Part shown: piece by piece, positions 1 to 6,994 of the stretch
Layout: every line of letters starts with the position of its first letter
Position numbering within the stretch: the stretch's first letter is position 1
DNA from: a virus
Lineage: Duplodnaviria; Heunggongvirae; Uroviricota; Caudoviricetes
Strand: one strand, 5' to 3'
IMG/VR virus record: IMGVR_UViG_2660238215_000005
DNA length: 14,235 nt
Program-made: the position numbers and the translations under genes
The notes under the pieces: generated by a model
Told to the model about the DNA's origin: nothing
Database searches by the model: none
What the model saw: the letters and a program-made list of their open reading frames with translations, nothing else

Positions 1-222
1 GTCCTCCTGGTGGGGTGGGCCTGAACACGGGGCGGGCGGCGCGGAAAAAAGCGCATTTTTGTGATTTTATCGTCATCATCATCATGTGTGTAACCTGTTG
101 TTTTTAATGTGGTTGATGCAAAAAAGATGATTGTGGTTAATTTTTGTTCGACATCTTTTAGCGTGACAGATTCTTTACAAAAAATCTGAGCTTGTTTTCT
201 TCACCAGCGCGATGGGGGCACA

Positions 223-504
223 ATGACAGAAGCCGAAATACTGGGATTAATCCGCCGCGTCGCCGGAATCAGCCAGCAGGTTGACGAACAGGCCACGCAG
301 CCGGACAGCATGACCGCAGATAATTATGTGCGTGTAGTGGTGGAGGTGATGCGCGGTGATGGTATCCAGCTTAATGATGTGGATATGCGCAATATACGAA
401 CCAGAGTCCTTGAGTTGCTGGCATACCGTCGCCGTTCTCAACAACGGAGGGAGAGCGCGAAAAATACTTACCAGTGGAAGACGCCGGAACGGCTGCGGAG
501 GTAA
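223..504 (+). CDS. hypothetical small protein (93 aa), function unknown; occupies the position where a lambda-type small terminase subunit (Nu1) would sit
   Basis: ATG at 223 preceded by GGGGG (214-218) as a Shine-Dalgarno-like element; TAA stop at 502-504. Basic Arg-rich C-terminus. No recognisable winged-HTH or catalytic motif. Lies in AT-rich DNA unlike the GC-rich structural genes. Confidence 0.4.
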   Translation: MTEAEILGLIRRVAGISQQVDEQATQPDSMTADNYVRVVVEVMRGDGIQLNDVDMRNIRTRVLELLAYRRRSQQRRESAKNTYQWKTPERLRR

Positions 505-539
505 CTTGTTGATATTCCCGATAACGCAAAATTGCGTTG

Positions 540-547
540 GCTGGTGG
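540..547 (+). other. Chi octamer 5'-GCTGGTGG-3' (RecBCD recombination hotspot sequence)
   Basis: Exact match to the E. coli Chi octamer, read directly; sits between two palindromes at the junction. Whether it is functional is unknown. Confidence 0.5.
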
Positions 548-549
548 GT

Positions 550-569
550 GAGTTGCAGATCTGCAACTC
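550..569. repeat. perfect 20-bp palindrome GAGTTGCAGATCTGCAACTC
   Basis: The sequence equals its own reverse complement over 20 bp; no U-tract follows, so it is not a canonical intrinsic terminator. Candidate protein-binding or recombination site. Confidence 0.9.
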
Positions 570-587
570 GATCATGAAATTACGGAA

Positions 588-668
588 ACTACCCGTAGTT
601 TGGGTAGTAAGAGCAACACCCAGATTTTGGGGCTTACTTGCGATACCCAAATAAAGGGTATCGGTGGA
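588..668. repeat. three phased ~27-bp tandem units, each with a CCC-N7-GGG dyad
   Basis: ACCC at 591, 618 and 645 and GGG at 602, 629 and 656 give an exact 27-bp period. Unit 1 is ACTACCC-N7-GGGTAGT (588-608) and unit 3 is CGATACCC-N7-GGGTATCG (641-663); unit 2 is a weaker copy. Confidence 0.6.
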
Positions 669-701
669 AGAAATATCGTTTCTCATATGTGAGTTCCGAG
701 A

Positions 702-713
702 GCGGAATTCCGC
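702..713. repeat. perfect 12-bp palindrome GCGGAATTCCGC
   Basis: Self-complementary 12-mer read directly from the sequence. Confidence 0.85.
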
Positions 714-840
714 CTCTGATTTGTCATTGTGATCATGCATAGCGGCAATAATTAATATTGCTTCCTTTTTTGCTTTTTTATCGCTTAAGCAGGTACTAAA
801 TCTGGGACTATGTTGTAGGGGGCATAACTCAATAGTACCT

Positions 841-846
841 TATAAT
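841..846 (+). promoter_or_regulatory. consensus -10 hexamer TATAAT, possible promoter element upstream of the truncated terminase
   Basis: Exact TATAAT 33 bp upstream of the ATG at 879; no good -35 element at 16-18 bp spacing, so weak support. Confidence 0.2.
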
Positions 847-878
847 CATTTAGTTACCTTTTATTTACTTCTTCTTGG

Positions 879-2000
879 ATGGAGGGGCCAGCTGCGGCGT
901 TTCAGACCTGGGAACAACTGATTTTTAAACTGCTGGCGGCAGAAGAAGAGTATGAGCGAACCGGCAGTGAAGAGACTCTGAAAGCGGTGGTGAACACCGA
1001 TATCGGACGACCCTATCTGCCCCGTTCAGCCACGGAACAGCGTAAAAGTGAACTGCTTGAACAGCGTGCCGAGCCGTTTCCCCGGCGATCTGTGCCGGAT
1101 GGTGTGCGTTTTATTGAGGCAACGGTTGACGTACAGGGCGGTAAAAATCGCCGTTTTGTTGTGCAGATCACCGGATACGGAGAGCAGGGGGAACGCTGGA
1201 TTGTTGATCGCTACAACATCCGGCATTCACTGCGCTGCAGTCCCAACGGTGAAAGTCTGCCGGTTGATCCGGCGGCATATCCGGAGGACTGGGATTTGTT
1301 GCTGACGGATGTGTTCCATAAAACATGGCCGCTGGCTTCTGATCCGGATGTGCGCATGCGTCTGATGGCCATGGCGGTGGATACGGGAGGGGAAGCCGGG
1401 GTGACAGATAACGCCTATCGTTTCTGGCGTCGTTGCCGGAGTGACGGACTGGGCAACAGGGTGTTTCTGTTCAAGGGGGATGGACTTCGCCGTGACAGGC
1501 TGATTAACCGAACCTTCCCGGATAATACCGGCAGAAGTGCCCGCCGTGCCAGAGCCAGTGGCGATGTCGCGCTGTGGCTGGTTCAGACGGATGCGTTTAA
1601 GGATCGTGTAAATAATGCCCTGTGGCGTGACACACCAGGGCCGAACTATATCCACTTTCCCGACTGGCTGGGGCGGTGGTTTTACGATGAGCTGACCTAT
1701 GAAGAGCGCGGCAGTGACGGAAAATGGCGAAAACCGGGCAGGGGCGCTAACGAAGCGTTTGACCTGCTGGTTTATGCAGATGCGCTTGCCGTTCTGCATG
1801 GTTACGAAAAGATCCGCTGGCCCTCCGCACCGGACTGGGCACAGCGGGAAACGTGGCTCGTCTTCCCGCAGGAGCGTTCTGGTGAAACGGTATCCCCGGA
1901 ACTGACGGCCGGGGCAGAAAAACGCCGTCGCCGGAAGAAAAAACTGCGGACGGAGCGTGCGGAAGATAATCCATGGATAACATCAGGAGGCTGGTTGTGA
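879..2000 (+). CDS. terminase large subunit (lambda gpA-like), C-terminal nuclease half only; probable 5'-truncated remnant or pseudogene
   Basis: The 373-aa product aligns, from memory, with roughly residues 330-640 of lambda gpA (for example FQTWEQLIF against TTWVQIVKD, RWIVDRYNI against SWLIDRQII, NEAFDLLVYADALAVL against NEALDCFVYALAAL). Similarity begins at the ATG; the N-terminal ATPase half (about 330 aa) is absent and the upstream DNA is AT-rich and unrelated. Poor Shine-Dalgarno sequence. Confidence 0.75.
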   Translation: MEGPAAAFQTWEQLIFKLLAAEEEYERTGSEETLKAVVNTDIGRPYLPRSATEQRKSELLEQRAEPFPRRSVPDGVRFIEATVDVQGGKNRRFVVQITGYGEQGERWIVDRYNIRHSLRCSPNGESLPVDPAAYPEDWDLLLTDVFHKTWPLASDPDVRMRLMAMAVDTGGEAGVTDNAYRFWRRCRSDGLGNRVFLFKGDGLRRDRLINRTFPDNTGRSARRARASGDVALWLVQTDAFKDRVNNALWRDTPGPNYIHFPDWLGRWFYDELTYEERGSDGKWRKPGRGANEAFDLLVYADALAVLHGYEKIRWPSAPDWAQRETWLVFPQERSGETVSPELTAGAEKRRRRKKKLRTERAEDNPWITSGGWL

Positions 2001-6094: not shown

Positions 6095-6368
6095 TCTGTT
6101 TACGCGAATGTGTTGCCGGATGGACGTGGCGACCGTTCGGGTGATGGGCAAACAGGCGGAGATTAACGGCGTCGTGTACGACGTGATGCCGGAGGAAGAG
6201 TCCGCGGAGATGGGGGCGCTTTCGGGCAGCCAGTTGTCACTGGTGGTGTTTTCAGCCCGGTACCGTCCGGCCCGTCATGATGTTGTTGTGTTTGCGGGGC
6301 GCACACTGACGGTGACCCGTTATGACACGTACAACGGTAAACCCCGGATTTTTGTCGAACAGGAATGA
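6087..6368 (+). CDS. head-tail connector or head completion protein (FII-like candidate), 93 aa
   Basis: ORF overlapping the previous stop and lying between the head genes and the Z-like gene; assignment by synteny only. Confidence 0.45.
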   Translation: MSDLFTRMCCRMDVATVRVMGKQAEINGVVYDVMPEEESAEMGALSGSQLSLVVFSARYRPARHDVVVFAGRTLTVTRYDTYNGKPRIFVEQE

Positions 6369-6370
6369 GT

Positions 6371-6994
6371 ATGGCAATAAAAGGTCTGGCGCAGGCCATG
6401 AAAAATCTGGATGCAATTGATCGCCGTGCCGTTCCCCGGGCCTCTGCCACGACACTGAACCGCGTGGCGGGGGCCATTATTGCGAAAACGGCCTCTTCAG
6501 TTGCCAGGGAGCTGGCCGTTCCCCGTCGTTTTATCCGTGCCCGCATCCGGTTAAGTCCGGCACGACCGGATAAGGTTTACGCAAAGGTTTACATCAATAC
6601 CGGCAACCTGCCCGCCATCAAACTGGGGGAGGCCCGCGTTCGACTTTCCCGCAGAAAACGGAGAAAGAAAGGACAGCGTGCGGCCCTGAAAGGGGGCGGC
6701 AGTGTGCTGATTGTGGGGAAAAGACGGATCCCGGACGCCTTTATCACCCGGCTGGCTAACGGACGCTGGCATGTGATGCAGCGTATGCCGTGGGCATCAT
6801 CATCCACCGGCGCGGACAGCAAAGGGAGGCCGAAACGCCACCGTCTGCCGATCGAAGTGGTGAAGATTACGACTGCCGGACCGCTGGCAGAAACCTTTGA
6901 ACGTGAACGGGACCGGATGTACCGGGAAAAATTACCGGCGCAGATGATGAAAGCCATGACGCATCAGTTACGCCTGGTGCTGAAAAGAAAATGA
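6371..6994 (+). CDS. tail completion protein (lambda gpZ-like)
   Basis: ATG at 6371 with AGGA at 6-nt spacing (alternative ATG at 6365); N-terminus MAIKGL and the basic RRKRRKKGQR stretch resemble the minor tail protein Z family as I recall it; syntenic position before U. Confidence 0.65.
   Translation: MAIKGLAQAMKNLDAIDRRAVPRASATTLNRVAGAIIAKTASSVARELAVPRRFIRARIRLSPARPDKVYAKVYINTGNLPAIKLGEARVRLSRRKRRKKGQRAALKGGGSVLIVGKRRIPDAFITRLANGRWHVMQRMPWASSSTGADSKGRPKRHRLPIEVVKITTAGPLAETFERERDRMYREKLPAQMMKAMTHQLRLVLKRK

Follow-up and report, generated by a model that had tools for sequence, protein, structure and literature searches.

A conserved 93-codon gene in the small terminase slot beside a cos copy is very probably the terminal gene of a satellite embedded in its helper's terL

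We analyzed a 14,235-nucleotide stretch of DNA from a tailed virus (Caudoviricetes, IMG/VR record IMGVR_UViG_2660238215_000005; hereafter the window), in which a 93-codon open reading frame (ORF; 223..504, + strand, ATG start) lies just after a cos-like motif, in the slot of a small terminase subunit gene (terS), and just before a set of palindromes. Comparing this ORF and its surroundings with phage, prophage and bacterial genomes, we found window 1-874 (a cos copy, the ORF, a dyad-rich arm and attR, in this order) to form the right-hand end of a phage-inducible chromosomal island (PICI) of ~10.4 kb. This island is embedded in the large terminase gene (terL; GpA type) of its helper, a VT1-Sakai/Stx2-like prophage, and interrupts that gene at about codon 333, between the ATPase domain and the nuclease domain. 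Judging from sequence comparison, the ORF itself is very probably the terminal gene of this Gram-negative PICI embedded in helper terL. Taking this identity together with the functional proposal made below, we hold the explanation as a whole with confidence only a little above even. The kind of element (PICI, helper-embedded) is already known, and the gene family is catalogued and uncharacterised.

The late region of VT1-Sakai/Stx2-type lambdoid phages matches the window in two pieces only. Window 1-184 is 89.6% identical to the cos region 5' of terS in phage Stx2_95 (locus L001 of our collection, 1501-1687), and window 875-2200 matches an Stx2-type phage over the second half of terL and the following genes at 99.8% identity (L001:3200-4525), such that window 185-874 stands in place of 1512 bp that encode TerS (DUF1441 type, 158 aa) and the ATPase half of TerL in intact phages. 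The same 690 bp, 99.9% identical, closes a 10.4-kb island that splits terL in strain 155 (locus L004), where the order is prophage terS, the first 1 kb of terL, the 10.4-kb insert and the rest of terL. A 12-bp core, TTGGATG(G/T)AGGG, is common to both junctions in strain 155 and present as a single copy in uninterrupted terL, with the attR version, TTGGATGGAGGG, forming the satellite/terL crossover at window 875..886 (+ strand, corresponding to L001:3200-3211) and the attL version reading TTGGATGTAGGG (L004:10262-10273). Excision would restore terL, with a restored junction of ...CGTCATTTTGGATGGAGGGGCC... (also given as ...CGTCATTTTGGATGGAGGGGCCAGC...), and the prophage is probably intact but interrupted by the satellite.

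The gene content of the strain 155 insert is that of a Gram-negative PICI. Its early part holds a tyrosine integrase, a small helix-turn-helix (HTH) gene, a Bro-N gene, an Icd-like gene and DUF4222, and its later part a D5/DUF5906 primase, SSB, a ClpP-capsid fusion, the second cos copy and the 93-aa gene, all co-oriented with terL. Pfam supports these assignments (the integrase being Arm-DNA-bind_3 plus Phage_integrase), while the AlpA identity of the small HTH gene rests on its label from the Prokaryotic Genome Annotation Pipeline (PGAP) because it has no Pfam match. The gene order, ~10-15 kb size and flanking att repeats of Gram-negative PICIs are all present in strain 155, whose island has few capsid or packaging genes and none for tail or lysis, and at least 80% of window 185-874 was found in 84 of 5426 complete E. 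coli genomes.

Beyond attR, the part of the helper terL left in the window (875..2000, + strand) encodes the nuclease domain only (Pfam GpA_nuclease, E 1.9e-81) and is labelled by PGAP 'terminase gpA endonuclease subunit, missing N-terminus'. The listed ORF 879..2000 begins at an in-frame internal Met codon inside the att core. In the integrated state, translation from this codon could in principle give a TerL fragment with the nuclease alone; the DNA 5' of the codon shows no good ribosome-binding site.

The GC-rich cos-like motif of the preliminary description is genuine. Window 1..184 (+ strand, with a cosN-like core GGGCGGGCGGCG at ~30-41) is a satellite copy of a helper-type cos region. 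In strain 155 it follows the satellite capsid gene directly, and it shares 88.5% identity with the cos that the host prophage has of its own (L004:8560-8747). Aligning the cos regions of the window, an Stx2 phage, the host prophage and two satellites, we found the satellite cos to be collinear with the phage cos until ~20 nt before the phage terS start, which is where the leader of the 93-aa gene begins, and the ATG of the 93-aa gene to fall within a few nt of the phage terS ATG. Lambda Nu1 starts at nucleotide 191, the figure on which the likeness in spacing had first been drawn. The ORF comes to occupy the terS slot because the island's ~90% identical copy of the helper cos lacks a following terS. 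In a sister island at the clpS site, cos is followed by a DUF1441 terS and then, 2 nt past the terS stop, by the 93-aa gene, and therefore terS is simply missing in the window's lineage. The helper's own terS is intact 11 kb upstream in strain 155, and packaging of the island would presumably use helper TerS together with TerL restored by excision. The placement in the terS slot consequently stands as a position, matching that of intact relatives, but the cos and the ORF belong to the PICI and not to the packaging module of the prophage.

The satellite carries two cos-like copies, before its capsid gene (L004:17267-17356) and before the 93-aa gene (L004:19804-20000, corresponding to window 1-184), and these resemble cos1 and cos2 of EcCICFT073. 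The second cosN of CFT073 has the inverted orientation and is found 65 nt 5' of the 93-aa homologue, with rppA bracketed by two oppositely oriented cosN sequences (L007:19559-19570 and 20298-20309).

ORF 223..504 is a real gene under purifying selection. The 93-aa frame and its ATG are intact in all 86 homologues from the loci fetched at the first stage, the median dN/dS is 0.25 over 1109 pairwise comparisons, and 712 protein clusters match the protein in a database search at E<=1e-3, all of them labelled hypothetical. Its sole family match is phrog_1561, listed in PHROGs v4 as of unknown function; residues 1-93 align to all 93 positions of that profile at E 2.5e-55, so that a profile search finds a full-length family but none of known function. 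Searching 1.84 billion representatives exhaustively with HMMER gave 36 matches, mostly fragments or chimeras, and no fusion of the family to known domains. The protein consists of an acidic helical N-terminal part, a long basic helix and a tail, and its charge is sharply divided (pI 11.7 for residues 61-93 versus 4.4 for residues 1-60), bearing out the Arg-rich tail first noticed from the letters. That C-terminal tail is invariant (Y-x-W-K-x-P-E-R-L-R-R) and belongs to a family-wide core of a helix, (E/Q)LNGQD, a helix with RHRQR, P(Y/F)QWKKP and a basic end.

The Shine-Dalgarno-like G-run is likewise present, at 214-218 (5-9 nt 5' of the ATG at 223), inside a leader and ribosome-binding stretch (205..222, + strand) delimited by homology to other islands. 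Homology to the O103 and CFT073 islands starts at window 205 and 210, respectively, i.e., 13-18 nt 5' of the ATG, and a leader of ~15-18 nt is kept even in unrelated islands. Island alignments revealed no conserved promoter upstream of the gene, conservation reaching only those 13-18 nt. The AT-rich setting holds for the flanks (37% GC for 61-222 and 40% for 505-874) but not for the ORF itself (54% GC). A minus-strand ATG ORF of 90 aa (468..740), which overlaps the palindromes and the 3' end of the 93-aa gene, was considered and set aside as not a gene because related islands have stop codons within it.

Surveying ~90 loci, we found that the gene-neighbourhood comparison called for in the preliminary description places the 93-aa family consistently as a satellite's last gene before attR. 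This holds for the prototype PICI EcCICFT073, where the family member directly follows rppA (c1503), for the roxA/phoQ islands of O103 and O157 strains, for clpS-site and thiM-site islands, for fis-site capsid-forming PICIs (cf-PICIs), and for the prototype cf-PICI EcCIEDL933, where it lies 13 nt after terL. What lies directly upstream varies: a census of 91 loci found cos only (26), a 180-aa TerS-like gene (31), Rpp (11), cf-PICI TerL (13), a DUF1441 TerS (1) or an unidentified neighbour (8), and at least five different packaging modules precede family members. The gap to an upstream terS or terL is 5-20 nt at many loci by tblastn and 2-13 nt by annotation, and unrelated islands have in common only the family gene and ~15 nt to either side of it. 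A Lambda_tail_I gene intervenes upstream of the family member in some fis-site islands; some PICIs also carry Lambda_tail_I-like tail-assembly genes or fragments just 5' of the block of cos and terminal gene (L003:10503-11203; L098:5399-5992), consistent with captured helper late genes.

This distribution is one of satellites. Window 185-874 (690 bp) has no DNA match in 50,697 phage records and matches in 1409 of the 5426 complete E. coli genomes, and tblastn of the phage collection with the 93-aa protein returned one marginal match, inside a circularly permuted cf-PICI. The record in question, PQ569648.1 'Klebsiella phage P12620-1' (106.5 kb, 67 annotated features), contains this cf-PICI at 88675-96836 (L095) in the order TerL, a 65-aa short homologue overlapping the terL stop, 340 bp, integrase and an Ant-like gene, and may be a co-assembly of phage and satellite. 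Such short forms (61-66 aa, without the first ~30 residues) are widespread in Klebsiella, Enterobacter, Citrobacter, Raoultella, Pluralibacter and others.

From its position, the preliminary description had entertained a divergent or partial small terminase subunit, and the ORF does hold the terS position relative to cos and does encode a basic C-terminus. The protein, however, has no match in Pfam or NCBIfam, its BLASTP comparison with phage DUF1441 TerS gives E=1, and its profile scores hhalign probabilities of 0.1-0.6% against lambda Nu1, the 180-aa TerS-like protein and the DUF1441 TerS of a satellite. An AlphaFold model predicts three helices, and neither the model (with pLDDT, its per-residue confidence, <60 at residues 11-30 and 81-93) nor fold searches suggest an HTH, ribbon-helix-helix (RHH), winged HTH or Xis-like fold, which agrees with the earlier remark that a Nu1-type winged HTH is missing and gives no sign of the RHH or HTH that would have supported DNA binding. 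Relatives argue in the same direction, in that their 93-aa gene lies downstream of an intact, bona fide terS or terL that it does not replace, and so does the composite element of strain 155, given its intact helper terS; in the window itself 370 bp of non-coding DNA separate the gene from attR, and the terL fragment beyond is the helper's. As judged by sequence and predicted model, then, the 93-aa protein is not a small terminase subunit, and a divergent or truncated TerS is a very improbable reading. Still less probable, and the least so of all the readings weighed here, is a non-functional remnant or a chance ORF produced by rearrangement. The gene does sit at a rearrangement junction that replaces terS and half of terL, but the 86 intact copies, the dN/dS, the 712 clusters and the occurrence of the family in several genera with a conserved C-terminal motif are those of a maintained gene, and the absence of conservation once contemplated is contradicted by the selection seen across the family.

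Other candidate identities were also examined. A relationship to Rpp or another protein of solved structure found no match among PDB sequences (phmmer with the single sequence and two profile searches), and in EcCICFT073 the family member is a separate neighbour of rppA. A likeness to the arginine-rich motif of lambda N (RRR..RR..QWK) was dropped, as BLASTP gave no alignment and the spacing differs. PADLOC defence-system models returned no match for the protein. Fis and the 93-aa family share (Q/E)LNGQD between two helices; hhalign against Fis is weak (probability 11% over 31 columns), and the Fis HTH is absent from the family. In one E. coli contig, Fis residues 1-46 are joined in frame, at LNGQD, with the last 37 residues of the short form (this Fis::short-form chimera lies at L097:3317-3568, protein P0256, with further coordinates L098:6001-6189 and 6343-6639). 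The fis gene is a very common PICI attachment site.

The palindromes downstream of the ORF are real. They form an array of dyad symmetry (519..713, assigned to neither strand) found in about half of related islands and not in the CFT073 type, and comprise AACGCAA-AA-TTGCGTT at 522-537, a perfect 20-bp palindrome at 550-569, a pair of TACCC-N7-GGGTA dyads at 590-606 and 644-660, and GCGGAATTCCGC around 700. Among the 62 loci with enough downstream sequence, the 20-bp palindrome is found in about 31, mostly with the TACCC-N7-GGGTA pair; a further 14 carry the first palindrome alone, and in 17 none of the searched motifs occurs. The DNA downstream of the family gene is of at least three unrelated types, and the protein is 75-90% identical across loci with and without dyads. 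The suggestion that the ORF encodes a regulator binding the adjacent dyads is made less likely by the 17 loci that carry none of them and the 14 with the first only, and no DNA-binding fold was detected either. The dyad region folds better as RNA than shuffled sequences (z = -3.5), and in one relative the arms of the first palindrome differ at two positions in a compensatory way; overall the array fits hairpins at least as well as operator sites. Searching window 1-1200 for RNA families gave only a chance-level match. Several dyads are variants of TGCA/GCAA half-sites (AACGCAA-AA-TTGCGTT, GTTGCAGATCTGCAAC, GTGCAAATTTGCAC, AGTGCAAAAATGCACT), and the array is ~90% identical among islands with unrelated integrases and att sites (terL, clpS, thiM, fis).

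Turning to function, the literature that we searched holds no published function for the phrog_1561 family, and we tentatively favour, at well under even confidence, an accessory factor, specific to the satellite, that would make packaging or transfer of the island more efficient. In this view, the satellite's late/packaging operon would end with the 93-aa gene as its final expressed cistron. The acidic helical hairpin of the protein would serve as a scaffold or for dimerisation, and contacts to nucleic acid, or to a conserved acidic partner, would be made by its invariant basic helix and tail (RRR..RR..YxWKKPERLRR); since at least five different packaging modules lie upstream, such a partner would not be one particular terminase. 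A late accessory role is favoured by the tight spacing after terS or terL, the absence of a conserved promoter and the satellite specificity, as well as by purifying selection and the basic tail that is invariant across genera. Mutating the 'hypothetical gene 1792' of the EcCIEDL933 packaging module cut transfer severely and left replication unaffected (bioRxiv 10.1101/2022.09.08.507074), and that module has two hypothetical genes, a 60-aa ORF between HNH and terS and the 93-aa family member.

Several observations weigh against the account of identity and function given here. The left part of the island is taken from near-identical genomes, the window starting at the cos copy. 'Gene 1792' may well be the 60-aa ORF. 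Of the EcCICFT073 genes cloned from the region after ori, Fillol-Salom et al. (2019, PMC6739421) report that c1503 (rppA) alone blocked lambda, and a strong interference role is therefore unlikely if the 93-aa gene was among the clones. The helper-embedded prototype Eco567.11capE (hereafter 11capE) does without the 93-aa gene, which is therefore not essential for every PICI. Finally, the most constant feature of the gene is its position beside attR and not beside any packaging gene, a position that fits a recombination-linked or a cargo role equally well.

Of these two, the cargo role has the gene directed at host or phage, for superinfection exclusion, anti-defence or modulation of a host factor via the tail. 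Island ends are the usual place of PICI accessory or immune genes, the authors of the cf-PICI work expect immune systems in the variable regions flanking the packaging operon, and 11capE has HEPN/DUF262 at the same position; the tight cassette common to islands with differing neighbours fits as well, and the invariant tail suggests one conserved target across genera. Yet the protein matches nothing in PADLOC, the gene is highly conserved, unlike diversified defence hotspots, it has no conserved promoter of its own and follows terS or terL tightly, and single EcCICFT073 genes other than rppA did not block lambda (PMC6739421). We regard cargo as unlikely, and as somewhat less probable than the packaging proposal. 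More doubtful again is a recombination-linked architectural factor, which would bind the dyad-rich arm and shape attP or control read-through into int, the order in the excised circle being ORF, attP, int. The gene is always nearest attR whatever lies upstream, the permuted PQ569648.1 element runs from TerL through the short homologue and 340 bp into the integrase, a basic helix and tail are present, and half of the loci have the same dyads downstream. These points are met by the integrase of the window's island, which shares only 22-26% identity with those of islands carrying genes 84-90% identical in DNA, with differing att cores, by the three or more unrelated types of downstream DNA, by the 17 loci of 62 that lack every searched dyad, and by the want of an HTH, RHH or Xis-like fold in the model or fold searches. 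Moreover, AlpA is the known PICI excision factor, and alpA deletion abolishes transfer (PMC6092414). A directionality factor specific to one integrase was rejected on the same comparison, near-identical gene copies accompanying such distant integrases.

Returning to the packaging or transfer proposal, a broader and more speculative joint reading, to which we give slightly less weight than to that proposal itself, would make phrog_1561 and its short form a hallmark of many enterobacterial PICIs of every packaging type, needed for efficient transfer, perhaps 'gene 1792' itself, with a tail acting on a conserved host or helper component or on DNA and an origin perhaps in the Fis dimerisation hairpin. 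The same joint reading would see in the window's island a second origin of helper late-gene embedding, with an unrelated integrase and a new GpA-type TerL site.

These findings bear first on annotation. The ORF and the following 'terminase gpA endonuclease subunit' should not be annotated as a degenerate packaging module, and the probable restoration of terL by excision matters for judging whether Stx-type prophages are defective. Further, about one in four complete E. coli genomes carries the family, invariably at the same PICI end, while phages are essentially without it, and it offers a cheap and well-defined deletion target in the EcCICFT073 and EcCIEDL933 systems. The terL site and the distant integrase also suggest that satellites embedded in helpers are not restricted to a single clade of integrases.

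Placing the gene among known systems, we find that it resembles TerS (lambda Nu1, the DUF1441 proteins of Stx/Sakai-type phages, P27) in its position relative to cos in the window, and differs in having no homology, no DNA-binding domain and no overlapping terL start, and in coexisting with real TerS genes. Ppi and CpmB, small helical proteins of the staphylococcal pathogenicity island (SaPI) satellites, act on the assembly or packaging of the helper. They offer an analogy only, in being short, helical, satellite-specific and encoded in a packaging operon, with no relation in sequence or fold implied. EcCICFT073 DNA is packaged in full-size capsids, and a size-redirecting role is therefore unlikely. 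Rpp, which redirects phage packaging, shares with our gene that it is a small PICI protein encoded beside a PICI cos in the packaging region; Rpp proteins, however, have 144-153 aa and an N-terminal winged HTH that mimics TerS (Fillol-Salom et al. 2019, PMC6739421), the structure of RppC having been solved, whereas the present protein has 93 aa, no HTH and no PDB match and is encoded separately beside rppA in EcCICFT073. The closest counterparts are the terminal genes of EcCICFT073 (WP_000133413.1) and EcCIEDL933 (WP_000133425.1), which likewise have 93 codons, ~76-84% identity and a full-length phrog_1561 match and are the last co-oriented genes before attR; they differ in that the window gene is preceded only by a cos copy (no rpp, terS or terL) and in that the window island lies in a prophage gene and theirs at chromosomal sites.

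As an element, the island compares best with the helper-embedded PICIs (HE-PICIs) described by Tommasini, Mageeney and Williams (2023, PMC10111431) with 11capE as prototype. Its integrase (L004:10432-11670) is 24% identical to that of 11capE, which is itself 41-51% identical to ordinary PICI integrases. The doubled attP motif TGTATTGC is absent from the island at up to 3 mismatches (<=3), and the island's att sequences are not among the att alignments of PMC10111431. In NRG857c, 11capE (L096:8536-10252) carries a HEPN and DUF262 pair in the opposite orientation at the end where other islands have the 93-aa gene, and this pair is probably defence cargo. The terL site and integrase lineage of the window's island appear not to be listed in the 2023 survey, whose authors expected further HE-PICIs beyond their search radius. 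The window's island shares with HE-PICIs a cos copy ~90% identical to that of the helper, an interrupted late gene restorable only by excision, a terL split with a 12-bp repeat, and island genes co-oriented with the helper gene. It differs from 11capE in having the 93-aa gene and a distant integrase, from the published HE-PICIs in its attP without the doubled motif, and from the published gene-A sites, all of which lie in Terminase_1-type TerL whereas its own target is a GpA-type terL.
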